Origin: Escherichia phage DK-13
Sequence record: MT611523.1
Direction: 5' to 3' (one strand)
Length of the DNA stretch: 64,000 nt
Every line of letters starts with the position of its first letter. The stretch's first letter is position 1. The position numbers and the translations under genes are program-made. Shown here one piece after another: positions 2,885 through 56,416 of this stretch. Below the pieces are notes generated by a model, which ran no database searches, was not told where the DNA came from, and worked only from the letters and a program-made list of their open reading frames with translations.

Positions 2885-3213
2885 CTCTTTTTCATTTTAA
2901 TCTTATCAATTTCATCTTGTATTTGCATTGTAACACACTTTTCTACATGCACAGCAAGCTCCGCTTTGCGGTCTTCGGAAGGGGTACCGAAATCAACTGA
3001 AACTTTTCCAGATGGTTCAATTTTAATTCCGGTTACGTACACAATGTGACTGGACCCATCAGGGAGTGATAACAGAATTTCCTGTCGTACAGTTCCCATG
3101 GATTGCCGGATAATCTCCAAACTTTTTTCGTAGTAAGGTACAGAAGGAGCCTTAGCTCCCTCCGCATCTTTCTCGAAATTATCTAAATCAGATAAATCGA
3201 TATCATTCATCAA
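2869..3213 (-). CDS. 40: gp40 head vertex assembly chaperone
   Basis: 114 aa ORF between uvsX and 41 with overlapping stop/start, matching T4 synteny and size. Confidence 0.7.
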   Translation of the reverse strand: MMNDIDLSDLDNFEKDAEGAKAPSVPYYEKSLEIIRQSMGTVRQEILLSLPDGSSHIVYVTGIKIEPSGKVSVDFGTPSEDRKAELAVHVEKCVTMQIQDEIDKIKMKKRWWKW

Positions 3214-4381
3214 GGTCTTCCATCATATCTAAATCGTTTTCGATATCTGCAGCGGACGGTTTTGTCTTACCTTCAGGAGCAGAGTATTTTTCAACCTTGG
3301 AGGCAATAAGCGCATCAACTTCGGCATCAACAACAGCATTGCTATCGATTGCACCCAGTTGGTAATGGCGTTTGATTGCATCACGGAAAGGTTCGTGTTT
3401 AAACAGCGGCCCCCAGAATTCGGTGCAGTTAGTATCTTTTGCGCGCCATGATTTTTCTTCGCGGACCATTTCCCCGGTCTCAACATCAAGATATTCACGG
3501 TTATACCAACCAACTTTTGGTTTAACCACAAATCCGATTTCTATTGCCATATCAAGCAGGCCAGAATACGGGTCAATACCACCATCGAATTTTACATCAA
3601 TGAAGAATTTACTTTTCTCTTTGACCATACGAGATTTTTCGGCGTTCAGAACAAATTGGAAGCCTTCAAGTTCTTTACCAGTTTCTTTAATCTGACGTTT
3701 ACCGATAATGAATACAGTGTCCGCGGAATACATAACACCTGTGCCACCGGTCATAACGGTTTTACTGTACATCTCAATCGTCTCGATTGTATGGTTAACC
3801 GCGACACAAGGAATATCCTTGATACTAAAATAAGGGGTAACAATACGGAACAGAGATTTCAGGGATTTAGCACGAGTCATATCGCCAACGACTTTTTCGT
3901 TCATCGCATCTTCTGTTTCTTTTTTCGACGCCATGTTACCGATTGAGTCAATAAAGATAATGACTTTTTCACCACGCTCAATTGCTTCAAGCTGGTTAAC
4001 CATATCAACTTTCAATTGTTCAACCGACTGGATTGGTGTATGGATAACACGCTCCGGGTCTACTTTCATTGCACGAAGATATGCTTCTGTGATACCAAAT
4101 TCTGAATCATAGAACAAACAGATTGCGTCGGGGTATTTGTTCATATATGCAGAGACCATCGTTAAACCCATATTGGATTTAAAGTGTTTTGACGGACCAG
4201 CAAAAATAGTCAAACCTGACTGCATACCACCATCTAGTGCACCGCTGATTGCAATGTTCAGCATCGGGATTTTTGTACGAACTACATCTTTATCATTAAA
4301 GAACTTGGACTTGGTAAGAGTCGCAGTCATTTTGGATGTAGAAGCTTTAATCAAACGGGATTTCAAATCTGCAATAGACAT
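3203..4381 (-). CDS. uvsX: UvsX RecA-like recombinase
   Basis: 392 aa, RecA/Rad51-fold sequence; T4 UvsX size and position. Confidence 0.93.
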   Translation of the reverse strand: MSIADLKSRLIKASTSKMTATLTKSKFFNDKDVVRTKIPMLNIAISGALDGGMQSGLTIFAGPSKHFKSNMGLTMVSAYMNKYPDAICLFYDSEFGITEAYLRAMKVDPERVIHTPIQSVEQLKVDMVNQLEAIERGEKVIIFIDSIGNMASKKETEDAMNEKVVGDMTRAKSLKSLFRIVTPYFSIKDIPCVAVNHTIETIEMYSKTVMTGGTGVMYSADTVFIIGKRQIKETGKELEGFQFVLNAEKSRMVKEKSKFFIDVKFDGGIDPYSGLLDMAIEIGFVVKPKVGWYNREYLDVETGEMVREEKSWRAKDTNCTEFWGPLFKHEPFRDAIKRHYQLGAIDSNAVVDAEVDALIASKVEKYSAPEGKTKPSAADIENDLDMMEDLDE

Positions 4382-4460
4382 TCATTTTTTCCATAGGCAC
4401 CATTATATTTTTCTCACAGGTTTAAGATAGGATAATTATATCACTGTATTTTCAGAGCAA

Positions 4461-4589
4461 TTAACGATTGAATCCACGATTAATTGCACGTTCAACAATC
4501 TTCCGGGTCTGACGTTTGTCCCACCAGTACATAAAACCAATACCAAATGCAGACAACAGCCATAGGCTAATCAATAACATACCAATCAT
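4461..4589 (-). CDS. Small hydrophobic membrane peptide (42 aa)
   Basis: Hand-translated ORF MIGMLLISLWLLSAFGIGFMYWWDKRQTRKIVERAINRGFNR, below the 60 aa track cut-off, fills the gap between uvsX and the lipoprotein gene. Confidence 0.3.
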   Translation of the reverse strand: MIGMLLISLWLLSAFGIGFMYWWDKRQTRKIVERAINRGFNR

Positions 4590-4610
4590 AATATTCTTCT
4601 CGCAGTTTGT

Positions 4611-5114
4611 TTAGTTAATACCTTGGCGTGCTTTCTCTTTAGCTACACATTTATTAATATAGCTCAGACGGTTTTGAGCAGAACGCTGATACATATCGCG
4701 GTACTCATTAGCTTTTGGAGAACCCGTCTCTGCTGCCTGATAAGCTTCTGCGCGCATGATGTTTATCTGCATATTGATGTATGACATGCAGACCTGTGAA
4801 ATCTGGTTAACAGTATCCAGGTCATTTTGTCGCTTGGTTTCTGCTTCCAGCTTGGCAATGATTTCGTCATGCTTCGCAGCTTGCTCGCGTTTGTACTCAA
4901 TTTCTTGTTGAGCATATTTCGCGCAGTTGTTTCCACATTGATTGTTGTCGCGTTTGTAGATAAGTCCAGTACCACCTTTGAAATCAAAGGAACCATTATG
5001 CACCTGACGGTCTGCAGCAATTCGCGCTTTACCAATCTCGTTGGCATTAACAACATCACCCTGGTAAGCACAACCAGATAGCAGCATAACAGCTGCGATA
5101 GCTAACTTTTTCAT
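4611..5114 (-). CDS. Lipoprotein with coiled-coil region (occupies the T4 beta-gt/42 position)
   Basis: 167 aa; signal peptide MKKLAIAAVMLLSGC with lipobox; sits where T4 carries beta-gt and gene 42. Confidence 0.6.
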   Translation of the reverse strand: MKKLAIAAVMLLSGCAYQGDVVNANEIGKARIAADRQVHNGSFDFKGGTGLIYKRDNNQCGNNCAKYAQQEIEYKREQAAKHDEIIAKLEAETKRQNDLDTVNQISQVCMSYINMQINIMRAEAYQAAETGSPKANEYRDMYQRSAQNRLSYINKCVAKEKARQGIN

Positions 5115-5122
5115 TTTGCTTC

Positions 5123-5266
5123 CTAATTAAAACATTCATAGCGGGCTTGGAGCCCCAAAAATACCCAACCCAAAATTAAAGTTGGAATCATATGTGGAGT
5201 CATTATTGCCCAGTAGATTGACATACTAAAAAATGCAATCAGTACAATAATTGTAATTATCTTCAT
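5123..5266 (-). CDS. Small membrane protein (47 aa, imm.1-like position)
   Basis: Hand-translated MKIITIIVLIAFFSMSIYWAIMTPHMIPTLILGWVFLGLQARYECFN; its ATG overlaps the imm stop as ATGA. Confidence 0.35.
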   Translation of the reverse strand: MKIITIIVLIAFFSMSIYWAIMTPHMIPTLILGWVFLGLQARYECFN

Positions 5267-5505
5267 TTTGATTCCTTGATGATAATTACTTGTGCGTTTG
5301 ATTTACGTTCAGCAACGAGTGCCCAGATAAATGCAATAAACCATCCGACCATTGTCCAACCTAACAGAAGGTTAACAAAGAAGATTCCGCAATTACTTTT
5401 GGTACCACGCAGCAGCGCGATAATCCACGGCAGAAAATATGCCAGTGCAGCCAGGAAGAAAGAACCAGCCCCAAGAACAACAGTACCCGCAATTAATGTT
5501 TCCAT
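5263..5505 (-). CDS. imm: Imm superinfection immunity membrane protein
   Basis: 80 aa, two TM segments, YFLPWIIALLRG...NLLLGWTMVGWFIAFIWAL resembles the superinfection immunity family; directly upstream of gene 43 as in T4. Confidence 0.7.
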   Translation of the reverse strand: METLIAGTVVLGAGSFFLAALAYFLPWIIALLRGTKSNCGIFFVNLLLGWTMVGWFIAFIWALVAERKSNAQVIIIKESK

Positions 5506-5574
5506 TTTAATATCCTTAAGTTATTCATCAGTTGATGAGGTAATCATACGGCAATCCATTGCCGTTGTAAACAC

Positions 5575-8289
5575 TTAAAAGTCAAACATGTCAAAAAGAG
5601 TTGCTTTCTTTTCGTAATCAACCTTTGCAGCTTCAGAGAAACCTGTTAATGGCTTAACAAAAGTCTTCTGGAACAGTGTGTTGTAGTCCATCCACTGCAG
5701 AACCTGGTCACGGATTTCAATCGGGAGTTCAATCCCAGATGGCCATGCAATCACGGTTTCACCAAACGGGTTGCCGACTTTAAGAGGAAGTACATACACC
5801 TTTTCCCCTTCCATGATTTGCGGAACAGTCTTCAGACCTTTAGTTGCACGCATATAAGCAAGCACACCTTTGATATGAGCCGGGCACTTAAATCCAGGGA
5901 AACCACCTTCATTATATTTCTGGATGTTGTTAACCGATGATACACCTGCGATGGTCATGTAGTTAAGCTCATTAAATTCCTTATTGAATTCCTTGAAGTA
6001 TGTCTGCAGAGATTCTTCACCTTCTTGCAGCATGCGGCGGATACATTCTTTCAGAGCTTTCTGACATGCCTTTGGAGTACTCGACTTTTGAGTTTCCAGA
6101 CCCATAATTTTCAGTTTCGGAACAGCATAACGTGTGCCTTCCATATCGTACACGTTCAGCGCATAACGCTTCTTCGCCGTCCAGAATCCACCCACACCTT
6201 TAGAACCCAGCGGAGGACATGCAATCGCCTCACGGTCCATAAACATAAGGTGCTGTTTGTTGTTCATGTATTCAGCCAGCTCACGGAAAGCTTTATCGAT
6301 TGCCGGTTCCAGACGGTCTTTCGCAAACTTGTCCATGAAGTCAACCAGGTGGTTTGTATCACGGAATTTAGATTCGCCACCAACCTTTTTAATCAGGTTA
6401 TCACACTGGATATAAATGGAGTCAGTATCGCCATAGAACACATAAGTTTCGCCGCTTGTCCCACAAACACTATCGAAGTATTCGTTAACTTTACGCTCAA
6501 TCCACTGCAATGCAAGTTGTCCGAAAGATGTAATCGCGGTTGCATTTCGCAGGTCAAAGTAACGGAACCAGATATTGCCCAGAGCGCCATAACAGCTGTT
6601 GATAAGCAGCTTACGGTTAATCTGTGCGGTCATGCCTGCAACTTCTTCCATCTGCGCTTTATACAACATACCATTTAGGACTGTTTGATTCAGACCATGC
6701 AAGGTTGTTTTCATATTGTCATCAAAGTCATGACGATAATCAACTTCAGGTTCGGTTGTACCAGTTCCTGGATTGCGCAGAGCTTCCTTAATCAGTTCAC
6801 CATTACGTTGAGCCGCAAGCATATAGCCTTTGTGCTCTTTACGCTGATTAAACACCTTGGTGACTTCTGTCGGAATAATACCCGCAACATCTTTAAAATA
6901 CATCATACCATTTGGAGCACAACTAAATGTATCAGATGGACGGTCAGCAGTTCCGGCGATGTATTCATGCATTTGCGCAGGAGCAAATGAACCGGCAATC
7001 GTTTCTGGACTGATGTTAATCTGTCGGATAATGCTCGGATACAGAGATGTTAAGTCACAGCTCATTACATATTTGTACGCGTTCGGAATAGGTTCCTTAA
7101 CAAATGCACCAGGGAACGATTGACGAACATGCGATTTGGTTTCCGGAATGACTTTGTTTTGAGTCTTCAGGCTGTTAAAGATAATCGCATCCCAAGTTTT
7201 GATTGGGCTGAATACAGACTGAATCTGCATTTTTGCGTAATAACCCATTGACTGACTCAGGTTAATAAACTGCCGCTTACGGTCAATCTGCACAACACGA
7301 TAAACGTCGATGATGTTATAAGAAATATACCGCTGGTGATTTGATTCGCGCAGTTTAGAAATCGGGCCATCATACGGGAGTTTACCAACACCCAGTTCAG
7401 ATTCCGCAACATAATCCAACGAATAAGACGGTTGGTTTGTGAAGCTGAACTTTTTATACAGGTCCAGATAATCCAGAACAGAGATACCCAGAATCTGAAT
7501 GATTTCTTGTTCTTCACCAAAGCCATTGTTAATGACCTTAACTTTTGTACGACGATGTGGGCTCAGACGTTTTGCCGTAGCTTCACCAAATACATTTTTA
7601 AGGCGGTTGTAGATATATGGAATATCAAATTTCTCGATGTTCCAACCAGTTAACATAACCGGAGTTTTCTCGTTCCAGAATACCAAATACTGCTGGAGCA
7701 TTTCTTCTTCTGAATCGAAAGCCATATAAACAATTTTTTCCAGGATTTCTTCAGGGACTTCATCACCGCCGTCTTCCTGCAGCTTAGCAGCAATATCAAT
7801 AGACCATTGCTCCACAGTGGCGTATGGTGAGCCCAAAAGGTCAAAGACATAGAATTTATCGTCTACCGAATCATAGTGCGTCAGGGCATCAATAGGGTGA
7901 CGTGCTTCAGACGGTTCAGGGAACCCATCAGGAGATGTCACCTCGATATCGAAGTTAGCAACACGGATTTTACTTGAATCATATTTGATTTCGTGTGGGT
8001 AACGGTCGGACAAGTATGCGAGTTTAAAGTCATCCATACCCATAGCTTCGAGACCCATGTCATTCATTCGCTTCATCCACTGGGATGCATCACGCATGGA
8101 ATCGAATTCTTTTTTCACACAACCTTTATTATAGATGTCTGTATACTTTGCAGCCTGGCCTTCCCGGGCGTGCATAAACAAGCATGGGGCATAAGGGATT
8201 TCACGAACACGTTCATGACCATTCTTGTCAATATATCGTTCGAGTAGGTTGTCACCGATTTGTTCGATAGTTAAATAAAATTCTTGCAT
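5575..8289 (-). CDS. 43: gp43 DNA polymerase (family B)
   Basis: 904 aa; family-B polymerase-like sequence; T4 gp43 size and position; uninterrupted ORF. Confidence 0.96.
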   Translation of the reverse strand: MQEFYLTIEQIGDNLLERYIDKNGHERVREIPYAPCLFMHAREGQAAKYTDIYNKGCVKKEFDSMRDASQWMKRMNDMGLEAMGMDDFKLAYLSDRYPHEIKYDSSKIRVANFDIEVTSPDGFPEPSEARHPIDALTHYDSVDDKFYVFDLLGSPYATVEQWSIDIAAKLQEDGGDEVPEEILEKIVYMAFDSEEEMLQQYLVFWNEKTPVMLTGWNIEKFDIPYIYNRLKNVFGEATAKRLSPHRRTKVKVINNGFGEEQEIIQILGISVLDYLDLYKKFSFTNQPSYSLDYVAESELGVGKLPYDGPISKLRESNHQRYISYNIIDVYRVVQIDRKRQFINLSQSMGYYAKMQIQSVFSPIKTWDAIIFNSLKTQNKVIPETKSHVRQSFPGAFVKEPIPNAYKYVMSCDLTSLYPSIIRQINISPETIAGSFAPAQMHEYIAGTADRPSDTFSCAPNGMMYFKDVAGIIPTEVTKVFNQRKEHKGYMLAAQRNGELIKEALRNPGTGTTEPEVDYRHDFDDNMKTTLHGLNQTVLNGMLYKAQMEEVAGMTAQINRKLLINSCYGALGNIWFRYFDLRNATAITSFGQLALQWIERKVNEYFDSVCGTSGETYVFYGDTDSIYIQCDNLIKKVGGESKFRDTNHLVDFMDKFAKDRLEPAIDKAFRELAEYMNNKQHLMFMDREAIACPPLGSKGVGGFWTAKKRYALNVYDMEGTRYAVPKLKIMGLETQKSSTPKACQKALKECIRRMLQEGEESLQTYFKEFNKEFNELNYMTIAGVSSVNNIQKYNEGGFPGFKCPAHIKGVLAYMRATKGLKTVPQIMEGEKVYVLPLKVGNPFGETVIAWPSGIELPIEIRDQVLQWMDYNTLFQKTFVKPLTGFSEAAKVDYEKKATLFDMFDF

Positions 8290-11704: not shown

Positions 11705-11896
11705 TTAATCAAAGTATTCATATGCAAACCAGGCATTGTGTCTGTTCGCGATTATTTTAACATATTCTTCACCGAAAGCGTTTTGTAAGTCACGTTCAGT
11801 AACAAGGTGTTCATCTTTCGAAAAGGTATTAACTAACACATATCGTTTAATTTCAGGGACAGCCAGTAAATGCTGCCCGGTTAAAAAATTGCTCAT
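11705..11896 (-). CDS. 45.2-like small protein
   Basis: ORF in the 45.2 position; internal start MSNFLT chosen to avoid overlap with the plus-strand HNH gene. Confidence 0.4.
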   Translation of the reverse strand: MSNFLTGQHLLAVPEIKRYVLVNTFSKDEHLVTERDLQNAFGEEYVKIIANRHNAWFAYEYFD

Positions 11897-11936
11897 AAAT
11901 AATATTATCCGTTGCAGTATCAAACAAGGGTCTGAT

Positions 11937-12653
11937 ATGAATTATAACATCATTTACCAAAAGCTTATTAGCAGAGCATTGAATCGCAAATTAACCACAT
12001 ACTCTGAAAGTCATCACATTATACCCCGTTGCATGGGTGGGGCAGACGACGCTTCAAATCTTGTTGATTTAACTCCCGAGGAACATTTCGTTTGTCATCA
12101 ACTGTTGGTCAAAATGCATCCAAATAATGCTTCTTTGGTCTATGCCGCGCGCATGATGACAGTTTCCTCACCAAACGCCGACAGAAGCAAAAACAAATTA
12201 TTTGGATGGCTTCGTCGTAAAAACTTGGAAGCTCAACAAAATAAAATTTTCTCCGATGAAACCAGAAAGAAAATGTCAGAATCCGCCAAATTAAAACCGA
12301 GAGTTGAATGTCCACACTGTGGAAAAACCGGTCTCGTTGGCAATATGAATCGTTGGCATTTTGATAACTGTTCCAAAGGTCCAAACAAGGTTGTTCATAC
12401 TATTCCAGAAAAACAAAAGCAAAAAATTTCAGTAGGATTAAAACAAGCTAAACATGAAATTTTAACTTGTGAATTTTGTGGTCTTGAAGGTAAAAAGTGT
12501 GTTATATCCACTCACCAACAATTCTGCAAATCCAATCCAAACCGGAAGAAAAAGGTGGACCCCAAAATTCAGTGTCCACATTGTAATGTAGTCGGTACGC
12601 CAGCCAATATGAAACGTTGGCATTTTGATAACTGCAAAATGAAGCCTCAATAA
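11937..12653 (+). CDS. Free-standing HNH homing endonuclease with three C-terminal zinc-finger repeats
   Basis: HNH motif SHHIIPRCMGG...SNLV.LTPEEHFVCH; repeats CPHCGKTGLVGNMNRWHFDNC, CEFCGLEGKKC, CPHCNVVGTPANMKRWHFDNC; opposite strand to flanking 45.2 and 46; AAGGG RBS before ATG 11937. Confidence 0.85.
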   Translation: MNYNIIYQKLISRALNRKLTTYSESHHIIPRCMGGADDASNLVDLTPEEHFVCHQLLVKMHPNNASLVYAARMMTVSSPNADRSKNKLFGWLRRKNLEAQQNKIFSDETRKKMSESAKLKPRVECPHCGKTGLVGNMNRWHFDNCSKGPNKVVHTIPEKQKQKISVGLKQAKHEILTCEFCGLEGKKCVISTHQQFCKSNPNRKKKVDPKIQCPHCNVVGTPANMKRWHFDNCKMKPQ

Positions 12654-14556: not shown

Positions 14557-14794
14557 CCTTGATGCATGATTCAGCCATATGAATTAATGTCTCTGGAGTA
14601 TCATCTTCCATTACATTAAAGCTAAATTCCACGGCCCAATCGGTGACTACATAGACTTTGATAAGTTGACCAGTTTCCCGGTCAGTGATAGCTTCAAACC
14701 AATACTTAATAGTATTCGGTTGATTATCGTCGTCAACCACAGCACATTCGCGGATATGTTCAAGACCCGCTTCATTAAAATCATAAAGTCTCAC
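14531..14794 (-). CDS. Hypothetical protein (46.x)
   Basis: 87 aa acidic ORF between 47 and 46. Confidence 0.45.
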   Translation of the reverse strand: MRLYDFNEAGLEHIRECAVVDDDNQPNTIKYWFEAITDRETGQLIKVYVVTDWAVEFSFNVMEDDTPETLIHMAESCIKDAYYDEDF

Positions 14795-15810
14795 GGTTGC
14801 ACCTCAAGGTATAATTTGTTGGCCAATGCTTTGAGAGCTTTTGATTCTTTCTCATTGGCGTCAGGTAATGCATCGATATATTCTGCCATCATATCTGTTA
14901 AGCGTTTTATGTCTAACTCTTCATCAGAGTCTGATGTGTCAACACTGTTATCAACCTTATTGACAACACGCAATTCATGCACACGCTTTTCTAATTCAGA
15001 TTCGAACTTGGTCAGGTCTTTATCGACTTTTTCTACAATAACACGGACTGATAAGTCTTTGAAGTCGTCGTAGTTAATAGTTTCGTTTGGATAGAAAATC
15101 TTCCGATGCCAGGTGGTTTCATTCGGAATAAATTTCATCTCTTCGGTTTCGGTATCAAATTCCCAGAACCCGCGCGGGTCGTTCTCGTCACCTGCTGTTA
15201 ATGTCCATGGTGTCCCGATGTACTTAACGTTTGCAGCTTCTGAAATTGTGTGGAAGTGACCAGACCAAACTTGCTTGTACTTCTTAAGGAAATCAGGCTC
15301 AAGTCCGTGGGATTTCAATCCTTTATAGAAATAAAACCCGGTTAATTCCCAGTGACCGATGCAATATTCAGCCCCAGAAGTTTTGATATGTTGGTGAATG
15401 TCAGTTGCGTTCTCGTCACACATCCATGGAATCATATCAATCTGACAACCGTCAAAATCAACAGTCGTTGGCTTATCGTAGATTTTAACATGGTCATACT
15501 TATTCAGGAGTTCAGTGATAGCATTAGGATGAATCTTATTCTTCAGATTCATGTCATGGTTCCCGACTATCGTGTGCATAGTAATTCCTGCTTCACGAAG
15601 GAGTTCCATAATCTCACGGCTGAATTCCATCGTCTTATGCGTTACGGCCTTACGGACGTCAAAAATATCACCATATTGAATCCAGACTTTAATCCCATTC
15701 GCTTTGGAATATGCAATCGCCTGTAAAATACCATCGCGTTGAATGTTTTGAGCCCATGGGTCGTCAGCTTTGACACCTAAGTGCCAATCACCTAAATTTA
15801 AAATTTTCAT
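14791..15810 (-). CDS. 47: gp47 recombination nuclease subunit (Mre11/SbcD-like)
   Basis: Calcineurin-like phosphoesterase motifs (GDWHLG, GNHD); start taken at MKILNLGDWHLG, giving 339 aa as in T4. Confidence 0.93.
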   Translation of the reverse strand: MKILNLGDWHLGVKADDPWAQNIQRDGILQAIAYSKANGIKVWIQYGDIFDVRKAVTHKTMEFSREIMELLREAGITMHTIVGNHDMNLKNKIHPNAITELLNKYDHVKIYDKPTTVDFDGCQIDMIPWMCDENATDIHQHIKTSGAEYCIGHWELTGFYFYKGLKSHGLEPDFLKKYKQVWSGHFHTISEAANVKYIGTPWTLTAGDENDPRGFWEFDTETEEMKFIPNETTWHRKIFYPNETINYDDFKDLSVRVIVEKVDKDLTKFESELEKRVHELRVVNKVDNSVDTSDSDEELDIKRLTDMMAEYIDALPDANEKESKALKALANKLYLEVQP

Positions 15811-15993
15811 AAGCCAAGCGCCGTTATCGCAGTGCAAAATAAAATTATTGAAATGAACCCGTCAGGAGTGGAAAAGAATCCTATCCAACAAGCTCTTGTG
15901 AATGTGTAGAATGCCATGAATAGCACGACATATCCTAAAAATAATTCCATATACTCTCCTCAGTTGGTTCATTTTATCATCCCGAATATAAAG

Positions 15994-16018
15994 CAAAAAA
16001 GGAAGCACTAGGCTTCCT
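15994..16018 (-). terminator. Rho-independent terminator
   Basis: AGGAAGC-ACTAG-GCTTCCT hairpin followed on the minus strand by TTTTTT, at the stop of the small ORF 16008-16181. Confidence 0.5.
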
Positions 16019-16181
16019 TTCCAATTAATACACCATACAGAGGTTCATGAGAAGACCTGAACTTGATAGGCTTATAGGTAATAGTACCTTCATTTTCTGC
16101 TTTAATACGAGCAGCTTCAAATTGAAGAATCATCTCGTTTTTGTCAGATTTAATCTTATCAAAATCCGTCGAATTCGTCAT
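16008..16181 (-). CDS. Small hypothetical protein (57 aa)
   Basis: Hand-translated ORF MTNSTDFDKIKSDKNEMILQFEAARIKAENEG... with AAGAGG RBS, in the region where T4 carries alpha-gt. Confidence 0.35.
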   Translation of the reverse strand: MTNSTDFDKIKSDKNEMILQFEAARIKAENEGTITYKPIKFRSSHEPLYGVLIGKEA

Positions 16182-16239
16182 TCATATGACCTCTTAAAAA
16201 TCTGGATGTTCGTCGTTCATTAGCCACCTGTCCATGTTA

Positions 16240-16440
16240 TCATCGTTGCCACCATTTCTTAAGTTGATGAGAATCGACCCAAACCTTGGCTACAGGCTCA
16301 ATCTGAAAAATACCATCAGAATATTGGCCCATCATTTTGTATTCGGTTTCGGTTTGCTTGATACAGATATTACCGTATGAGCGAAGTCTGAAAGCGGCTC
16401 CAACAAGAAGCCGTTTAAAAGGTTTATTTACTAATGCCAT
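16240..16440 (-). CDS. Hypothetical protein
   Basis: 66 aa ORF in minus-strand array between 47 and 55. Confidence 0.4.
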   Translation of the reverse strand: MALVNKPFKRLLVGAAFRLRSYGNICIKQTETEYKMMGQYSDGIFQIEPVAKVWVDSHQLKKWWQR

Positions 16441-16735
16441 TTACGATTTCCCAAATTTGTTTGCGAGTAGAATCCCACATCAACTTAATCAGGTCTTCCG
16501 TAACTGGTTGGCGGTAAATTCCACGCAGTTTAACAAGAGCATATTTGTATGCTTCAAAATTGTTTTCCAGCACTGCCCCTTGAGCATGCTTATTCAGTCG
16601 TGCAATTTCACGAGCATTCTTTTTCAGAATCTTCGCTGCTTGACTGGTTGCTTCGAGTGCGTTCGCTTCTTCGAGACGTTCCTGTGCTTCTTCAATCTGC
16701 TTATCGGTCAGTTGAGAAATATCTGGAGCTTGCAT
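16424..16735 (-). CDS. Hypothetical protein
   Basis: 103 aa ORF in minus-strand array between 47 and 55. Confidence 0.45.
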   Translation of the reverse strand: MQAPDISQLTDKQIEEAQERLEEANALEATSQAAKILKKNAREIARLNKHAQGAVLENNFEAYKYALVKLRGIYRQPVTEDLIKLMWDSTRKQIWEIVNGISK

Positions 16736-16736
16736 A

Positions 16737-17006
16737 TTAATCCTTGGGAGTTAACTCAATTGTAAAATATAGATTAGCATTATCCACATGATAACGGTAA
16801 TCAACGTTATTGTCCGGAGAAGTAAATTCCAGATTCCGGACGTTTAAAGGGTCGATATCAATTGGAAGACCTTTTATGTCTCGCAGATAAAGTTTAATGA
16901 AATATGGGAGAGCCGTAAAGTCTTCCTCGATTTTATCTAAAAAATCGGTAATATCAAATTGATGTTCCATATAAAAAATCCAAATCACCCTCTTTATCTT
17001 TGGCAC
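16737..17006 (-). CDS. Hypothetical protein
   Basis: 89 aa ORF just downstream of gene 55; start uncertain, overlaps the 3' end of 55. Confidence 0.4.
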
Positions 17007-17511
17007 TCTTATCAGACCCTGGCGCTTTAACTAAGGAGGATTCGTACTGTGTCATTTTGTCATAGATGTCCTGGATAAATGTTTCATCAGCCAGAGCCAC
17101 CATATCGTCATCACGTGAATCATATACGTTATGGACGAAGTAGCTATATTTCTTTGCCATTTCTTTACGTTCTTTTTTGATACGCTGAACGAAAGCATTG
17201 AAGCAAGCCATTGTTATGTAAGCATGTGGATTATCGTATTTTGTTTCGTCGAAGTTGTGAAGACCTTTTATTGCGGCCTCAATACCGTCAGCAATCATTT
17301 CTTGCTTCCAGGATTGGGTATATCCGGAGAAGTTGAAACGTTTGCTAAGACCTTCGGCTATAAGCATAATCGCCAGACCAATAACATCGTTCTGGCGAAT
17401 AATTTTGTTCGGGTCGGTGTTCGCATTCAGCTTCTGTTTCCACTCCGAAATAGCTTTCAAAAGCTCTTTATTATTTACATAGTTATTCTTGGTTAATTTA
17501 ATTTCGTTCAT
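16954..17511 (-). CDS. 55: gp55 late-transcription sigma factor
   Basis: 185 aa; near-colinear with T4 gp55 (NYVNNKELL...[40 protein letters not shown]). Confidence 0.95.
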
Positions 17512-20664: not shown

Positions 20665-21135
20665 TTAATCATGTTTCCACACCCCATTGGTATTTGACCA
20701 AAGTCGCTGATTATCTGACCCTCGCCACAGTTTTTTGGTCGGAAGATTTTTCTCATACTTCCCATCAATAATAACATCAACATATTTAAGCATTTCTAGT
20801 TGTTTAATATCTTCAAACTTATATCCTGTCCACAGCCAAATGTTTTTATTGGGATAAAGATTTTTAATAGTTTGAACCACAGAGTGAATAACATCTCGGT
20901 TATCAGGATAGAGAGGGTCTCCTCCAGTTATAGTTAATCCTTCTATATAATCATTATTCAAACATTCAATTAATTGTTCTAGTGTTTCACCAGTGAATGG
21001 AACACCATTTCTAGCATTCCATGTTGATTTATTATAACACCCTTCGCATTTATGCAAACAACCTGTAACGAAAAGAACGACCCTACATCCAGGGCCATTC
21101 ACAAAATCGCAAGGATAAAATCTATCATAATTCAT
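20665..21135 (-). CDS. nrdG: NrdG anaerobic ribonucleotide reductase activating protein (radical SAM)
   Basis: 156 aa; Cys cluster CLHKCEGC; same size as T4 NrdG; overlaps the nrdD stop. Confidence 0.9.
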   Translation of the reverse strand: MNYDRFYPCDFVNGPGCRVVLFVTGCLHKCEGCYNKSTWNARNGVPFTGETLEQLIECLNNDYIEGLTITGGDPLYPDNRDVIHSVVQTIKNLYPNKNIWLWTGYKFEDIKQLEMLKYVDVIIDGKYEKNLPTKKLWRGSDNQRLWSNTNGVWKHD

Positions 21136-22949
21136 TGGTGTTTAACCCTATGCATGATTTCTTTATTTTTGCCGAGATTAAATCCGCGTTCGTTCGGATT
21201 TCCCAAATAGCCGCATGTTCTTCTTATTGTGTTCATCTTTTTAGGGTCAGTTTCTCCACAAATAGAACAAACAAATCCGTTTTCAGTAGGAGTCATTTCA
21301 TGGGTACTTCCACATGTAAAACATTTATCCACTGGCATATTAACACCAAAATAATCTAAATGCTGTGCAGCATAATCCCATACAGCCTCAAGACCTTTTA
21401 GGTTATTTTTCATATCAGGAAGTTCAACATAAGAAATGTGACCGCCTGTCGCAATGAAATGATATGGGGCTTCACGAGAAATCTTTTCAAACGGGGTAAT
21501 ATTTTTTTCTACTGAAACATGGAAACTGTTAGTGTACCAGCCTTTATCGGTAACATCTTTTACACTTCCATATTTTTCGGTATCAAGTTTACAGAAGCGA
21601 TAGCACAGGTTTTCAGCAGGAGTAGAATACAAACTAAAAGCAAATCCGGTTCTTTCAGTCCACTGCTTAAGACGAGCATTCATTTTAGTCAAAATTTCTT
21701 GCCCAATATCACGACCGGCAAGAATATTCAATTCGTGAATACCGATGTATCCTAGGGACACTGAACTTCTACCGTTTTTAAATAACTCAATTATATCATC
21801 ATCAGGTTTAAGACGAACCCCGAATGCACCTTCTTGGTAAAGAATAGGAGCAACAGTCGCTTTAACTCCTTTTAAGGAACTAATTCTACACATCAAAGCT
21901 TCAAAACATAAATCCATTCGCTCATTGAACAATTCAGTAAATTTCTGTTCATTGAACTGTGTTCCAATATAAGAATCTAACGCAATACGAGGAAGATTCA
22001 GTGTTACAACACCAAGATTATTACGTCCATCAAGAATTTCATTACCAGTCGAATCTTTCCATACGCCCAAGAAACTACGGCAACCCATTGGAGAAACAGG
22101 AATAGATGAACCGGTGATAGCTTTATTGTTCTTAGCCGAAATGATGTCAGGATACATTCTTTTGCTTGCACACTCTAGAGCAAGCTGCTTAATATCATAG
22201 TTCGGGTCGTCTTTATAAAGATTAACACCTTCTTCAACAAACATAACAAGCTTAGGGAAAATAGGAGTTATCCCATCGCGACCGAGACCTTTAATACGAT
22301 TTTTCAGAATTGCTTTCTGAATCATTCGTTCGGTCCAGTCAGTTCCGGTACCAAATGTAATTGTTACAAAAGGCGTTTGTCCGTTTGAACTAAAGAGAGT
22401 ATTTACTTCATATTCATAAGCTTGGAATGCATCATATACGTCTTTTTCTGTTTTAGATTGAGCATAATTCAACGCATCAGTGATTTGCCATTTTTCCGCG
22501 TCCTCAATATGTTTCGCATAGGTACGTTTAACATAAGGAGAAAGTACTTTATCTACATTCGCAAAAGTCGTTCCGCCATATTGATGGGAAGCAACCTGCG
22601 CAGTAATTTGTGCCATAATTGCAGTAGCAACACTGATTGATTTAGGAGTTTCAATCTGTGCATTACCGAGCTTAAACCCGTTCTCAAGCATTCCTTTTAA
22701 ATCTACTAAACAGCAATTAGTAAATGGAAGAGCAGGGGAATAATCAATATCATGGAAATGAATAATTCCGCTTTCATGTGCTTTCATAATAAAAGACGCG
22801 ACCATATTTTTGGCAATGTGTTTAGATACAATACCAGCCATAAGGTCACGTTGAGTTGGAAAAACACGAGAATCTTTATTAGCATTCTCGTTTAAAAGGT
22901 CTTTATTAGTTTTATGAATCAATCCTTCAATTTCGTTTTCAATTGTCAT
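21132..22949 (-). CDS. nrdD: NrdD anaerobic ribonucleoside-triphosphate reductase
   Basis: 605 aa; C-terminal glycyl-radical motif RTCGYLG and Zn-ribbon cysteines; single uninterrupted ORF. Confidence 0.95.
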   Translation of the reverse strand: MTIENEIEGLIHKTNKDLLNENANKDSRVFPTQRDLMAGIVSKHIAKNMVASFIMKAHESGIIHFHDIDYSPALPFTNCCLVDLKGMLENGFKLGNAQIETPKSISVATAIMAQITAQVASHQYGGTTFANVDKVLSPYVKRTYAKHIEDAEKWQITDALNYAQSKTEKDVYDAFQAYEYEVNTLFSSNGQTPFVTITFGTGTDWTERMIQKAILKNRIKGLGRDGITPIFPKLVMFVEEGVNLYKDDPNYDIKQLALECASKRMYPDIISAKNNKAITGSSIPVSPMGCRSFLGVWKDSTGNEILDGRNNLGVVTLNLPRIALDSYIGTQFNEQKFTELFNERMDLCFEALMCRISSLKGVKATVAPILYQEGAFGVRLKPDDDIIELFKNGRSSVSLGYIGIHELNILAGRDIGQEILTKMNARLKQWTERTGFAFSLYSTPAENLCYRFCKLDTEKYGSVKDVTDKGWYTNSFHVSVEKNITPFEKISREAPYHFIATGGHISYVELPDMKNNLKGLEAVWDYAAQHLDYFGVNMPVDKCFTCGSTHEMTPTENGFVCSICGETDPKKMNTIRRTCGYLGNPNERGFNLGKNKEIMHRVKHQ

Positions 22950-24228: not shown

Positions 24229-24999
24229 TTATTCATTATTCTTTTTCCTAGCATCAGAAGCAGCTTTTCTTCTAGTTCTAGTCCTTTCTAAATCAGCAGC
24301 AATCAAATTAGCTATATTAGTAACCGGATTACCAAATTCATCATAAGTAATATATTTCCAAGCATATCCAAATGTATGATTTCTCTCATTAAGCAGGCAC
24401 CTTTTAATAGCGCTGCCTGCTTTATAAATTGAAAGAAATTTAGCTGCATCTGGTAAATAATCAAAAGTTTCTACCAATTCACCTGAACTTAAATCAAATG
24501 CACCAAAAAGCTCAATAGTGTATTTACTCCTATCAAGACTGGCTTTAGCTTCATGCTTTAAGTGGTTTATTTCTTTTAGAATTTTAAGGTCTAATTGTCC
24601 TGGTATTTTATCTATCTGTACACCCATTCTAGATAAAGCATACCCCATTTTATAGTTTCCTGATTTGGCCAACCAATAGTGAGCCATAATATGGCTTTCT
24701 ATACTTAGATTTACAAGATTCCATTTAGACGTTTTAAATTCAGGAAATAAGGATTTAGGTAATATATGGTGAGACTCGGTTTTACCTTTTATTAAAGGCC
24801 CGGAAGACTCTATTAAAGAGAAATAGTTTTCAGCAAATTGCCAATAAGGCAATTTGCTTTTAAGAAGTTCTTTAATTTCGTCTAAGGTTTTAGTAGGCTT
24901 AACGGTCACTCCAATAGCTTGATACTTCAAAATCAGGCTCGCCGTCGTCCCAGTACCAGGGACCCACCGGATGCCAATCGCCATGCTTATCTTCTTCAT
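24229..24999 (-). CDS. Free-standing HNH homing endonuclease with C-terminal DNA-binding module
   Basis: HNH motif ESHHILPKSLF...WNLVNLSIESHIMAHYWL; C-terminal region resembles homing-endonuclease DNA-binding modules; inserted between 49 and nrdC; start uncertain. Confidence 0.7.
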   Translation of the reverse strand: MKKISMAIGIRWVPGTGTTASLILKYQAIGVTVKPTKTLDEIKELLKSKLPYWQFAENYFSLIESSGPLIKGKTESHHILPKSLFPEFKTSKWNLVNLSIESHIMAHYWLAKSGNYKMGYALSRMGVQIDKIPGQLDLKILKEINHLKHEAKASLDRSKYTIELFGAFDLSSGELVETFDYLPDAAKFLSIYKAGSAIKRCLLNERNHTFGYAWKYITYDEFGNPVTNIANLIAADLERTRTRRKAASDARKKNNE

Positions 25000-30235: not shown

Positions 30236-30538
30236 TTAATTAAAAGTTCTTTCAGTATTTTCACCGCTGAACCAGACGCTCTTAACGGCTTGCTGGGCGC
30301 GATGGAGCTGCTCTGCCATATAAACACCAAGGGCCTCAGCTTTACGTGCCCTGTGAGCTTCTGCGGCGACTATTTGCAACTTATCCATCATGATAAGAGC
30401 TTTACATTTCTCCTTCAGAGCATATCGCTTCTTCTCTTCTGGGGTTTTGACCATTCCTCTTAACTTGTGCATTTTCAACTTAAAATGGTCAGCAGATTTC
30501 AGACATGCCTCAATCATGTCAAGTTCATACTTTTTCAT
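30236..30538 (-). CDS. Hypothetical protein
   Basis: 100 aa basic ORF. Confidence 0.45.
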   Translation of the reverse strand: MKKYELDMIEACLKSADHFKLKMHKLRGMVKTPEEKKRYALKEKCKALIMMDKLQIVAAEAHRARKAEALGVYMAEQLHRAQQAVKSVWFSGENTERTFN

Positions 30539-30544
30539 AATTCC

Positions 30545-30751
30545 TCACTTGCGACGACGTTTTGGTAATGGTTTAGGGAAGAACATTGCTTTACCTGCAG
30601 GGGTCAAAGTCACACGCAAAGCATTACCAATACCAAGGGATGCTTTAACCAGACCTTTGGCTTTTAACTCACCAAATGCTTGACGTTGTTCAGGGTCACG
30701 AGTGTTAACCATCAGACCTTTTTCACCAGCAGCTTTGATTAATTCTAACAT
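30545..30751 (-). CDS. Small basic protein
   Basis: 68 aa, C-terminal KPLPKRRRK tail. Confidence 0.45.
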   Translation of the reverse strand: MLELIKAAGEKGLMVNTRDPEQRQAFGELKAKGLVKASLGIGNALRVTLTPAGKAMFFPKPLPKRRRK

Positions 30752-30830
30752 TTTATTCTCCGTTTGTTTATTTGGTAACTCAGTATGGAATCATTATGCC
30801 TCATGACCATCTGGTTGTACACATATACTA
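30752..30830 (-). promoter_or_regulatory. PeSL-like early promoter cassette (family B)
   Basis: Minus strand GTGTACA-N18-CATAATGATTCCATACTGAGTTACCAAATAAACAAACGGAGAATAAA then ATG; shares the intergenic region with the divergent plus-strand collagen-like gene. Confidence 0.45.
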
Positions 30831-30868
30831 AATAAAAATACTTAATAAAACCATAAAGGAGAAAGTTT

Positions 30869-31615
30869 ATGATTTTATCCGGAAGAACTGTTGATGAACT
30901 CAATGAAAAAGTCCAGGCTGCCTTGGCTGATAATTGGTATTTGTTTGGTTCTACTATGGTGTTGCCGAATACCCCTACAGATAGCAAAGAGCGTTTTTTC
31001 CAAACTATGTCCAGCTCGGAAACTCAGATACCGGGTCCGCCTGGTCCCAAAGGAGAACCGGGTGTACCCGGACCAAAAGGAGACCCAGGTGGGGATGGAA
31101 AATCTTCTTATCAGATATGGCTTGACTTGGGAAATACAGGAACTGTTGATGATTTTTTAACTGATACAGCAGGAAAGAGGGAAAAATCCGAGGTGTTTTG
31201 GAGTGGTATAAACGTTCTATTAACTAATGGTACGACTTCAAACATAATTAGTGTTTTAAAGGGGATTCCACCGACTGCAGGGACTCTATCTCCGTTTTTT
31301 AGAACCACTGATGATAAGTTGTGGCCATATAACCAAGACAGAAGCCTAATGTTTAAACTCAACCTTATTGGTAATTTTGCAGGAGCCTCGCAAGCTCGAA
31401 GTATAACATTAAATTTCGTTGGAACCAACGGAAACACTTATATACAGAATCGTCCGGAAAATGCTACAGATATTTTGTCTTTTACAACGTTCTTTAGCAT
31501 TGATAAAGATGGGGCAATGGCAACCAATGGTACAGCTATAACTGTTATGCCAAATGGCGGCAACTTTACAATAACCTCCGCATTGTTAGTAGCCGAACAA
31601 ACAGTGACTTCATAA
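30869..31615 (+). CDS. Collagen-like repeat fibre protein (Gly-X-Y repeats plus globular C-terminal domain)
   Basis: 248 aa; GPPGPKGEPGVPGPKGDPGGDG followed by SSYQIWLDLGNTGTVDDFL (post-collagen fibre motif); strong RBS AAGGAGAAAGTTT-ATG; only plus-strand gene in a 59 kb minus-strand block. Confidence 0.7.
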   Translation: MILSGRTVDELNEKVQAALADNWYLFGSTMVLPNTPTDSKERFFQTMSSSETQIPGPPGPKGEPGVPGPKGDPGGDGKSSYQIWLDLGNTGTVDDFLTDTAGKREKSEVFWSGINVLLTNGTTSNIISVLKGIPPTAGTLSPFFRTTDDKLWPYNQDRSLMFKLNLIGNFAGASQARSITLNFVGTNGNTYIQNRPENATDILSFTTFFSIDKDGAMATNGTAITVMPNGGNFTITSALLVAEQTVTS

Positions 31616-36188: not shown

Positions 36189-36761
36189 TCAGCTTGTTAA
36201 TTCGAGCCAATGTTTTCTGCACAAAGATACGTACGATTCATTCCCACCGACCAATACTTGCTCGCCGTCCTTTACAGCAGCACCGTCGATTACTCGAGCG
36301 GTCATGGTTGCTTTCCGGCCGCAATGACAGACGCCCTTTAATTCAACCAGTTTATCCGAAATAGCCAGAAGTCTGGCCGAACCGGGAAATAATTGACCCC
36401 GAAAATCTGTTCTTAACCCGTAACACATAACGGGAATATTGTAATTATCAACCACTTGAGCTAACTGGTCAATTTGCTCTGGTAACAAAAATTGAGCTTC
36501 ATCGACCAGGACACAATGGATATCCTTTTGAGACTCGGCCCATTTATAGAATTCAAACAGGTTCATGTCGGCCGTTACCAGGTTTGCTTCCTGGCTAATA
36601 CCGATGCGTGATTTAATTTCGCCTTCCGAGTCCCGATTATCAATAACAGGTTTTAGCAAAAGCACACTCATTCCACGCTCTTTATAGGAATAAGCTGCAG
36701 TCAGCAATGAAGCTGTTTTGCCTGCATTCATTGCTGCGTAATGATAAATTAAACTCGCCAT
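36189..36761 (-). CDS. tk: Thymidine kinase
   Basis: 190 aa; P-loop AAMNAGKTASLL and C-terminal Cys zinc ribbon; T4 Tk-like. Confidence 0.9.
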   Translation of the reverse strand: MASLIYHYAAMNAGKTASLLTAAYSYKERGMSVLLLKPVIDNRDSEGEIKSRIGISQEANLVTADMNLFEFYKWAESQKDIHCVLVDEAQFLLPEQIDQLAQVVDNYNIPVMCYGLRTDFRGQLFPGSARLLAISDKLVELKGVCHCGRKATMTARVIDGAAVKDGEQVLVGGNESYVSLCRKHWLELTS

Positions 36762-39209: not shown

Positions 39210-39789
<580 letters not shown>

Positions 39790-39793
<4 letters not shown>

Positions 39794-40981: not shown

Positions 40982-41290
40982 TTAGAAAGAACCAGAGCCT
41001 TTAATTGTGTTCTGGCGACCTTTATTTTCTAATTCAGAATGGTCGATTTCGTATGCTTGTGCTACACCAAAGGCCTTTTTAACTTTAGCTAAAGAACCTT
41101 TAGATGTAACAATATTAAAAGTATTACCTTTGGTAAAATCAACCAAATCAACCAAATCAACTTGTACACCCTGTTTACCGAGGCTTGCGACAATAGCATC
41201 AACATATTGTTGGTCTAAAGTACCTTGGACTCCAATTTGGAATGCTTTAGGGGCTTTGGCTTCTGTGATAAATTCTTGATAAGTTTTCAT
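40982..41290 (-). CDS. Internal protein (capsid-targeted, IP family)
   Basis: N-terminus MKTYQEFITEA matches the T4 internal-protein capsid targeting sequence; start taken at that Met. Confidence 0.6.
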   Translation of the reverse strand: MKTYQEFITEAKAPKAFQIGVQGTLDQQYVDAIVASLGKQGVQVDLVDLVDFTKGNTFNIVTSKGSLAKVKKAFGVAQAYEIDHSELENKGRQNTIKGSGSF

Positions 41291-41338
41291 TTTATATTCC
41301 ATTGTTTGGCTGATAAAATCATTATACAACCTTTTTAG

Positions 41339-55738: not shown

Positions 55739-55739
<1 letters not shown>

Positions 55740-56416
55740 TATATTACCTTATTAATTTTATCAAAAAGTTCTTCGAGTGTGCCATCGTTTTTAATAACAA
55801 TGTCACTAGCTAGTGGTGGAAGTCCAGCTTCCGTAATGTGTGTATCAGTAGAATGATTTGCTTCATCGCGTTCTACAAAGATTATTGTAGCACCCATCGC
55901 CCGAAGCGAATCAAGTTCGTTCTTTTGACGAACATCTGGGACAACGTAATATTTATATCCAGAATAGAGGTTGTCAAGATAATCGCACGCAAAAGTTTTA
56001 ATCCAAAACATGCTGTCGAACTCTGTACAAACGATGTCAGTTCCAAGGGTCTGCATGAAACGTCTAACTGTCCAGGGCTCAACATTATTTAGTGTGTGAA
56101 ATTCAATGATTTTACGAACCATATCTGGATTCGGAAGGTCAAGATTGTATTGTTGTTTCAACCATTCAAGAGCATCAACCAGAAGAATATAAGCTTCGGT
56201 GTTGTTCATTATCAAGGTTTTTTCACGGTCATAACCTTGTCCATCAAAATTTTCCAGGGTCAAATTGTGTGGCAGGTCTTGACGAATCCACGCTTTATAA
56301 AGCGCTTCTTTAATCGGACCTGCAAGCTGCCACTTTGTTCCGTTTTGACTAATAACATAATCAGCAGTCGTATCTTTACCACTGCGTTTTTTACCCACAA
56401 TCGCAATTAATTTCAT
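55739..56416 (-). CDS. 1: gp1 deoxynucleoside monophosphate kinase
   Basis: 225 aa; P-loop GKKRSGKDT; T4 gene 1 position between 57A and 3. Confidence 0.88.

Follow-up and report, generated by a model that had tools for sequence, protein, structure and literature searches.

T4 carries its cytosine-modifying genes at two canonical loci, and the question raised here is what has become of these genes, and of the cytosine itself, in a T4-like phage where both loci are short. The 64,000-nucleotide stretch of Escherichia phage DK-13 (MT611523.1) which was analysed, hereafter the window, belongs to a Gaprivervirus, being 94-100% identical to phages P479, VR7, VR20 and SP18. In T4 the gene orders are uvsX-segA-b-gt-42-imm-imm.1-43 and 47-47.1-a-gt-mobB-a-gt.2..5-55, so the T4 layout given in the preliminary description, with beta-glucosyltransferase and dCMP hydroxymethylase (gene 42) between uvsX and imm and alpha-glucosyltransferase between genes 47 and 55, is right. 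The first of these loci in the window is made up of the following features, all located on the minus strand:

3203..4381 (-), uvsX recombinase, the left flank of the canonical b-gt/42 locus; a 392-aa ORF, 98-99% identical to uvsX of P479 and VR7
4461..4589 (-), a 42-aa ORF with one transmembrane segment, lying where Dhakavirus has its 4.2-kb cytosine-modification cluster; 100% identical in P479 and VR7, absent from VR5, no PHROG match
4611..5114 (-), a 167-aa lipoprotein of unknown function with a signal peptide and an LLSGC lipobox; phrog_1754, E=6.6e-47; 51% identical to VR5_047
5123..5266 (-), a 47-aa membrane ORF, annotated as 42.1 in VR7; phrog_3610, E=7.6e-27
5263..5505 (-), imm, superinfection immunity protein; Pfam PF14373 (Imm_superinfect), E=1e-17; 52% identical to T4 Imm
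5575..8289 (-), gp43 DNA polymerase, the right flank; a 904-aa ORF, 99-100% identical to gp43 of P479 and VR7

The second locus is made up of:

14791..15837 (-), gp47 recombination nuclease subunit, the left flank of the canonical a-gt locus, named after the VR7 annotation
15807..15950 (-), orthologue of T4 47.1, 78% identical to it; phrog_6693
16008..17006 (-), orthologues of T4 a-gt.2, a-gt.3, a-gt.4 and a-gt.5 (16008-16181, 16240-16440, 16424-16735 and 16737-17006), found by tblastn in T4 order with E from 1e-13 to 1e-22 and assigned to PHROGs of unknown function; a-gt and mobB are missing between 47.1 and a-gt.2
16954..17511 (-), gp55 late sigma factor, the right flank, 100% identical to gp55 of P479 and VR7

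The observation made in the preliminary description, namely that only a 167-aa lipoprotein and two tiny membrane peptides lie between uvsX and imm and only small ORFs between 47 and 55, is thus confirmed in both coordinates and gene content. Its wording needs one correction, as the loci are not occupied by other genes: the modification genes, together with the T4 homing endonucleases segA and mobB, are simply missing, while the small flanking genes are those of T4 or of the sister genus Dhakavirus. In Dhakavirus VR5 the same gap between uvsX and the lipoprotein gene holds a five-gene cluster of 4.2 kb, which includes a thymidylate synthase (TS) homologue whose sequence we read as having Asp at the position of E. 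coli ThyA residue 177 and Glu at ThyA 143, a kinase, a HAD phosphatase and an RmlA/kinase fusion. This cluster belongs to the arabinosyl-5-hydroxycytosine system of RB69, DLP3 and Dhakavirus (Lee et al. 2026, PMC13326640), another component of which is a DNA arabinosyltransferase of the RB69 ORF003c type. The neighbouring lipoprotein, 47-aa ORF and imm are shared with VR5, but no remnant of the cluster was detected in the window, where the interval between uvsX and gp43, the place of the UDP-arabinose synthesis genes, holds only the three small ORFs and imm.

The preliminary description offered three alternatives without choosing among them, namely that the cytosine is unmodified, that the modification genes are kept elsewhere, or that a different chemistry is used, and this interpretation is partly supported. 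The possibility that the genes are kept elsewhere was considered first, since roughly 105 kb of the genome lie outside the window and T4-like genomes are mosaic, with some ORFs of the window absent from P479. A tblastn search of the window with T4 gp42, b-gt and a-gt gave only chance hits with E>0.1. The complete genome of P479, the closest relative (98-100% identical across most genes of the window), contains no gp42, a-gt or b-gt according to tblastn at E<0.1 or phmmer, and neither do the 146 of 169 kb (86%) of VR7 that were scanned; searches with VR5_043 in addition to T4 gp42 likewise found nothing in these sequences. The absence of gene 42 has been noted in two papers (2021 and 2025), in which the base is called unknown, and is reported for the genus. 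Furthermore, the number of phage records with the short uvsX-43 region, 32, is the same as the number of records with the td gene variant described below. On the basis of the complete P479 genome and the scanned 86% of VR7, relocation is rejected, and it is very improbable that this particular phage keeps the genes outside the window.

The second alternative, unmodified cytosine as in the RB49-like phages, would require gp56 to serve only as a dUTPase and alc and denB to have drifted to other roles. The lack of gp42 and glycosyltransferases is consistent with it, and gp56 homologues also exist in Krischvirus and Pseudotevenvirus, the two gp42-lacking genera scored as probably high-transducing in Table 4 of PMC12115623. 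However, P479 and VR7 retain gene 56 (dCTPase), which is 76-77% identical to T4 gp56, as well as alc, denA, denB, cd and frd, with alc and denB being intact. The Krischvirus relatives, treated in the literature as phages with unmodified cytosine, also have no gp42 and no glucosyltransferases, but they lack alc and denB (PMC12115623). Moreover, published restriction digests report modified, non-glycosylated cytosines in the DNA of VR7 grown on BL21(DE3) (PMC6326788 and its supplement). BL21(DE3) is a dcm- strain. An Asp-type thymidylate synthase of the kind described below would also be a poor dTMP synthase. Unmodified cytosine is thus disfavoured and seems very unlikely.

The third alternative, a different chemistry, is supported and can now be made specific. 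The only thymidylate synthase homologue of Gapriverviruses, the td gene product, encoded next to frd and outside the window, so that for DK-13 it is inferred from relatives, has Asp at the position of E. coli ThyA Asn177, the change being the classic switch from dUMP to dCMP. The Td proteins of P479 and VR7 read ...LGLPFDIGSY..., where T4 Td (PDB 1TIS) and E. coli ThyA read ...LGLPFNIASY.... Out of 24 catalytic or folate-contact positions compared, only position 177 separates the Gaprivervirus enzyme from T4 Td and other T4-like Td proteins, with Leu143, Cys146, His147, Glu58, Tyr94 and the folate-contact residues checked all matching T4 Td. The Gaprivervirus Td is 65-67% identical to those of T4 and VR5, whereas the latter two are 81% identical to each other. 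Asp was found in P479, VR7 and all four Gaprivervirus protein clusters, including the SP18 cluster of 73 members, and in a 69%-identical Td on one metagenomic T4-like contig, while 115 of 115 other T4-like Td sequences have Asn, as do T4, VR5 and RB49, the last of which has no gp42, alc or denB (PMC12115623). Acinetobacter phages 133 and ZZ1, named in PMC8056088 as also lacking gp42 while keeping denB, alc and the dCTPase, both have Asp177, Leu143 and His147, and no gp42 was found by tblastn in 130 of the 160 kb of phage 133.

What product such an enzyme would make is suggested by the residues it shares with T4 Td. A bulky Leu143 excludes water, whereas hydroxymethylases and 5-hydroxy-dCMP synthases have Asp or Glu there (PMC13326640). 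The match to T4 Td at Leu143, His147 and all other catalytic and folate-contact residues checked predicts a methyl rather than a hydroxymethyl product. The Gaprivervirus enzyme is a close relative of Td and not a gp48-type protein, and no VR5_043-like protein is present. It could be argued that the Asp177 Td acts instead as a dCMP hydroxymethylase, giving unglucosylated 5-hydroxymethylcytosine as in T4 gt- mutants, since Asp177 is shared with Asp179 of T4 gp42 (PMC8670742), gp56, gp1, alc and denB constitute the T4 hydroxymethylcytosine toolkit, and VR7 behaves towards BREX like T4-147, which has hydroxymethylcytosine only. Against that, Leu143 is retained, His147 and the whole folate and hydride-transfer set are those of a reductive thymidylate synthase, and in the BREX paper (PMC6326788), where the digests included samples pre-incubated with T4 beta-glucosyltransferase, the legend calls T4-147 hydroxymethylated but VR7 only modified. 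This reading is considered unlikely.

Another possibility is that the base, perhaps an undescribed one, is made by an enzyme not recognisable by sequence, and that the Asp177 Td is incidental or merely has relaxed specificity. Many ORFs of unknown function remain, and gp1 is about 50% diverged from the gp1 of both T4 and VR5. Nevertheless, Pfam scans covering most ORFs of unknown function of at least 70-85 aa in the window and in the remaining early regions of P479 showed no methyltransferase, no ThyX, no second TS-fold protein and no glycosyltransferase. The Gaprivervirus-specific ORFs, that is, those absent from VR5, are all small non-enzymes, homing endonucleases or NrdDG, and the ORF annotated in VR7 as deaminase-like has no deaminase motif. 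The recurrence of Asp177 in exactly the three groups reported to lack gp42 while keeping alc and denB is hard to call incidental, so this explanation remains doubtful. A more radical version, also unlikely though not excluded, is that the DNA carries a cytosine derivative other than 5-methyl-, 5-hydroxymethyl- or 5-hydroxycytosine, made either by the Asp177 Td through unexpected chemistry, as happened with the flavin-dependent 5-hydroxy-dCMP synthases, or by an enzyme among the unannotated early ORFs.

Two further genes of the window would take part in the proposed pathway:

55739..56416 (-), gp1 dNMP kinase, which would have to phosphorylate the modified dCMP; phrog_139, E=5.8e-59; only about 50% identical to both T4 gp1 and VR5 gp1, although 99-100% identical within Gaprivervirus
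36189..36761 (-), thymidine kinase, a possible salvage route to dTMP if Td no longer makes dTMP; Pfam TK, E=1.1e-56

Taken together, it seems more likely than not that in this genus, the whole of which lacks T4 gene 42, the glucosyltransferases and the Dhakavirus cluster, cytosine is still replaced but by a different route, with a recruited Td acting as a predicted dCMP C5-methyltransferase. In this view, gp56 hydrolyses dCTP and dCDP to dCMP; Td(Asp177), with methylene-tetrahydrofolate, makes 5-methyl-dCMP and dihydrofolate, the latter being recycled by Frd; gp1 and the host NDP kinase make 5-methyl-dCTP; gp43, which would have to accept this nucleotide, incorporates it to give unglycosylated 5-methylcytosine DNA; and Alc, DenA and DenB would then act only on host cytosine DNA, on the assumption that 5-methylcytosine DNA is spared by Alc and DenB. 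As the conversion of the only Td leaves the phage without its own dTMP synthase, dTMP is assumed to come from deamination of 5-methyl-dCMP by Cd, from host ThyA or from Tk. The gene content, the residue pattern and its distribution across phages are established by the present analysis, whereas the dCMP methylase activity of the enzyme, the identity of the base in virion DNA and the source of dTMP are inferred. Residues 177 and 143 are diagnostic rules drawn from mutants and a few natural enzymes and are not proof of product, and the published VR7 digests, which say only that the cytosines are modified, are consistent with 5-methylcytosine but not specific to it. It should also be mentioned that fully methylated DNA should be a target of McrBC, McrA and Mrr, yet one Gaprivervirus (RZ) lists K-12 MG1655 as host, and only a weak Arn-like ORF (phrog_3151, E=2e-4) was seen in P479. 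The link to candidate anti-restriction genes suggested in the preliminary description is no more than plausible; the window has seven internal-head-protein paralogues, and P479 has the weak Arn-like ORF.

The proposed system shares with the T4 glucosyl-hydroxymethylcytosine system the genome architecture, the flanking genes and the logic of purging dCTP and attacking cytosine DNA, with gp1 in the window and gp56, Alc, DenA, DenB, Cd and Frd in P479 and VR7, but the C5-modifying step is proposed to be carried out by the Td homologue, and no sugar would be attached. The 5-methylcytosine DNA of Xanthomonas phage XP12, made by a dCMP methyltransferase, and the engineered dCMP methylases ThyA N177D and L. 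casei N229D, the latter two being the only precedent for such activity, provide an analogy, involving a TS-fold enzyme with Asp at the specificity position, pre-replicative synthesis of 5-methyl-dCMP and predicted complete replacement of cytosine. Here the enzyme is the phage's own, and only, Td orthologue in a T4-like myovirus, embedded in the T4 gp56/gp1/Alc/DenB network.

While the absence of gene 42 had already been published, the Asp177 variant of Td and its distribution are new, and this single-residue reading of the td gene gives a concrete and directly testable answer to an open question in the literature, where advice on the therapeutic use of these phages has been withheld for that reason. 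If it is correct, these phages would be expected to be sensitive to methylation-dependent type IV restriction (McrBC, McrA, Mrr) and to BREX and resistant to many type II enzymes, methylation-dependent or methylation-sensitive sequencing and cloning methods would be expected to behave differently on their genomes, and it could be predicted which annotation pipelines mislabel the gene as thymidylate synthase. A whole genus of T4-like coliphages, at least two Acinetobacter T4-like lineages and one metagenomic lineage would then replace cytosine with 5-methylcytosine, and they would do so by re-purposing their own thymidylate synthase, giving up both gp42 and a dedicated dTMP synthase.

The 6-kb slice around the locus of interest matches 32 phage records over at least 80% of its length, the best of which are Escherichia phage P479 (98.4%), CJ20, vB_EcoM_RZ, VR20, SP18 and VR7 (94%), all of them being T4-like myoviruses of the genus Gaprivervirus. 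Nearly all genes of the window lie on the minus strand, and the G+C content is about 40%. The gene order at the first of the two canonical loci for cytosine hypermodification genes, and the genes flanking the second one, are as follows:

1445-2884, gp41, followed by gp40
3203-4381, uvsX
4461-4589, a 42-aa ORF with one transmembrane segment
4611-5114, a 167-aa lipoprotein with an LLSGC lipobox
5123-5266, a 47-aa membrane ORF
5263-5505, imm (Pfam Imm_superinfect, E=1e-17)
5575-8289, gp43
14791-15837, gp47
16954-17511, gp55

In T4 the same stretches read uvsX-segA-b-gt-42-imm-imm.1-43 and 47-47.1-a-gt-mobB-a-gt.2...a-gt.5-55, whereas between gp47 and gp55 the window contains orthologues of T4 47.1 (78% identity), a-gt.2, a-gt.3, a-gt.4 and a-gt.5, in the T4 order. 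The observation made in the preliminary description, that the canonical loci do not hold the T4 modification genes, is therefore right, although, more precisely, the modification genes and the T4 homing endonucleases are simply missing from an otherwise T4-like arrangement. A tblastn search with T4 gp42, b-gt, a-gt and gp56 finds nothing in the window, gp56 being located just upstream of the window's start in the relatives.

To find out whether the missing genes are located elsewhere, the complete P479 genome (172 kb) and 146 of the 169 kb of VR7 were examined. Neither holds a gp42, a-gt or b-gt homologue by tblastn at E<0.1, while both have gp56 with 76-77% identity to that of T4, and phmmer with T4 gp42 and with its divergent Dhakavirus homologue VR5_043 picks up only the td gene in complete P479, and only weakly. 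Both genomes keep alc, denA, denB, cd, frd, td and gene 1. This gene content has been described previously: it was noted in 2021 that Gapriverviruses lack any known base-synthesis enzyme yet have DenA, DenB, Alc and the dCTPase, and "an unknown protein" was proposed (PMC8056088). Experimentally, VR7 DNA was digested by Gordeeva et al. with modification-sensitive enzymes, with and without T4 beta-glucosyltransferase, leading to the conclusion that T4 and VR5 are glycosylated, that T4-147 is hydroxymethylated and that "VR7 has modified cytosines", which are unglycosylated, with VR7 being fully sensitive to BREX (PMC6326788). These restriction data, however, say only "modified".

In the sister genus, Dhakavirus VR5 carries five genes (4.2 kb) between uvsX and the lipoprotein gene, coding for a TS homologue only 24% identical to T4 gp42, a P-loop nucleotide kinase, a HAD phosphatase, an RmlA/kinase fusion and one more protein. 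The TS homologue, as read from its sequence, has Asp at ThyA position 177 and Glu at ThyA position 143. This matches the arabinosyl-5-hydroxycytosine cluster characterised in RB69 and DLP3 and extended to Dhakaviruses by Lee et al. 2026 (PMC13326640), whose list does not include Gapriverviruses. In the window, homology to VR5 runs through uvsX and about 65 bp upstream and then stops, with no remnant of the cluster left.

A replacement enzyme was then sought among the ORFs of P479 and of the window which have no VR5 counterpart. These are short membrane or acidic peptides, NrdD/NrdG, homing endonucleases and two paralogous proteins of about 145 aa, and the 266-aa ORF next to gene 39 is a GIY-YIG endonuclease. 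The loci of the window that are relevant here, together with one further dioxygenase-like candidate, are:

20665-22949, minus strand, the anaerobic ribonucleotide reductase genes nrdG and nrdD, present here and in P479 but absent from VR7 and from Dhakavirus VR5
11736-12653, plus strand, 24229-24999, minus strand, and 57919-58647, minus strand, three ORFs read as homing endonucleases, two of which give MobB hits and show HNH-like motifs, the third having been called by eye; they are variably present among close relatives, which marks the mosaic parts of the window
48893-49336 and 49789-50295, minus strand, two paralogous ORFs sharing the C-terminal motif NGAARRA.ID..V....K..VQSYASNFRK
43875-44561, minus strand, a 228-aa protein (phrog_1843) with an HxD...H...R pattern

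The VR7 homologue of the ORF at 49789-50295 is annotated as similar to a cytidine/deoxycytidylate deaminase, but the ORF has neither a zinc-deaminase motif nor a Pfam hit, so this annotation looks spurious. The 228-aa protein, with its 2OG-Fe(II)-oxygenase-like pattern, was considered as a TET-like 5-methylcytosine oxidase, and one source names it a phytanoyl-CoA dioxygenase (PhyH) family protein. It is 70-98% conserved across Escherichia, Citrobacter, Aeromonas, Serratia, Erwinia and Klebsiella phages, which is unusually high for a phage accessory gene, and it is therefore not specific to this chemistry. Pfam scans of about 110 further ORFs, most of them of unknown function, concatenated into pseudo-proteins and covering the window and the other early regions of P479, show no methyltransferase, no ThyX, no radical-SAM protein other than NrdG, no glycosyltransferase and no second TS-fold protein. 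Two other ORFs of the window were noted for their domain content:

30869-31615, plus strand, a 248-aa ORF on the opposite strand inside the early-gene block, with a collagen-like G-X-Y run followed by an Sf6-type tail-needle-knob domain (PF16532, E=2.7e-31), present in 8 Gapriverviruses (RZ 99.8%, YenM_P8, EAWsc9 and others) but absent from P479, VR7 and VR5
39515-39793, minus strand, a small ORF with an Acb2/Tad1 hairpin domain (PF24729, E=1.3e-13), a family comprising sponge proteins that sequester cyclic-nucleotide immune signals

The lead is provided by a single residue in the Td protein, the gene for which lies outside the window and is thus inferred for this phage from its relatives. The Td protein of P479 and VR7 reads YQRSVDVFLGLPFDIGSYG, where VR5 Td, T4 Td (PDB 1TIS) and E. 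coli ThyA read LGLPFNIASY, and the changed residue, which is 187 in P479 numbering, corresponds to ThyA Asn177, which was verified by numbering the E. coli sequence. The Asn177->Asp substitution (Asn229->Asp in L. casei) is the classic mutation that turns thymidylate synthase into a dCMP methylase, T4 gp42 has Asp179 at this position, and in metagenomes Asp177 TS homologues associate with cytosine-modified viral contigs (PMC8670742). A second rule was added by Lee et al., according to which a bulky Leu143 excludes water and gives a methyl product, whereas hydroxymethylases and 5-hydroxy-dCMP synthases have Asp or Glu there. In the Gaprivervirus enzyme Leu143, Cys146, His147, Glu58, Tyr94, Arg21/126/127/166, Ser167, Asp169, His207, Tyr209 and the folate-contact and C-terminal residues all match T4 Td, and among 24 checked positions only 177 separates it from T4 and other T4-like Td.

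Among the 120 best database homologues, Asp occurs only in the four Gaprivervirus clusters at 86-98% identity, including the SP18 cluster of 73 members and Yersinia phage P8, and in one 69%-identical protein of 292 aa from a 5.4-kb metagenomic contig (SRR24146912; positions 3953-4831), where it lies in a T4-like frd.2-frd-td context and represents a further, uncultured lineage with the same switch. All the other sequences, 115 of 115, have Asn. Megablast finds this td in exactly 32 phage records, which is the same number as that of the records carrying the short uvsX-43 region. The Gaprivervirus Td is 65-67% identical to T4 and VR5 Td, while those two are 81% identical to each other, suggesting accelerated change after a functional shift.

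The correlation was tested independently with Acinetobacter phages 133 and ZZ1, named in PMC8056088 as the other phages that have DenB, Alc and the dCTPase but no gp42. Their Td proteins (30517-31464 in the stretch of phage 133 examined, L014, and 15347-16279 in that of ZZ1, L015) read GKPFDIASY and GMPFDIASY, again with Asp177 together with Leu143 and His147. In phage 133, tblastn finds no gp42 in 1-80 kb or 110-160 kb, that is, in 130 of its 160 kb, which contradicts Table 4 of Petrov et al. 2010, where this phage is listed as having a gene 42 allele. RB49 (Krischvirus), in contrast, is reported to lack gp42, alc and denB (PMC12115623, Table 4), and its Td has Asn. The P479 Td is closer to the Asn-type T4 and VR5 enzymes (65-67%) than to the Acinetobacter Asp-type ones (53%), so the switch probably arose more than once.

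The preliminary description had left three alternatives, and its interpretation is supported in part: that the modification genes are kept elsewhere is rejected on the basis of the complete P479 genome and 146 of the 169 kb of VR7, that cytosine is unmodified is disfavoured, and that a different chemistry is used is supported. While the absence of the genes is already published as an unexplained feature of the genus, no prior statement of the Asp177 Td explanation was found in the searchable literature, and this explanation reduces a stated open question to the identity of one base and the activity of one enzyme.

If the DNA is indeed fully methylated, it should attract McrBC, McrA and Mrr, yet one Gaprivervirus lists MG1655 as its host. 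Candidate products which might counter such restriction, a role that is only conjectured here, are:

40982-41329, 41811-42080, 53533-53754, 53812-54096, 54123-54365, 54374-54646 and 54655-54987, all on the minus strand, seven paralogous small proteins, most sharing an MKTYQEF-type N-terminus, six of which match internal head/virion protein PHROGs and the seventh phrog_3966 (unknown function), making them candidate injected anti-restriction proteins
P479 67958-68239 (17958-18239 in the P479 stretch L006), outside the window, a 93-aa acidic ORF at the arn position next to asiA, absent from VR5, which weakly matches the PHROG for the inhibitor of McrBC restriction (phrog_3151, E=2e-4)

Besides gp43, two genes of the window would or might take part in the proposed pathway:

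55739-56416, gp1
36189-36761, Tk

In the mechanism proposed, gp56 would supply dCMP and remove dCTP, after which Td(Asp177) would methylate dCMP with methylene-tetrahydrofolate, the dihydrofolate being recycled by the adjacent Frd. Only the gene content and the residue pattern are demonstrated by this analysis, whereas the activity of the enzyme, the identity of the base, the dTMP route and the assumption that Alc and DenB spare methylated DNA are inferred. The 5-methyl-dCTP would then be made by gp1 and the host NDP kinase. The gp1 protein is only about 50% identical to both T4 and VR5 gp1, although its neighbours are 75-95% conserved, which suggests co-adaptation but is not diagnostic. The nucleotide would be incorporated by gp43, with the DNA staying unglycosylated, and dTMP would come from Cd acting on 5-methyl-dCMP, a deamination route comparable to that of phage XP12, from host ThyA, or from Tk.
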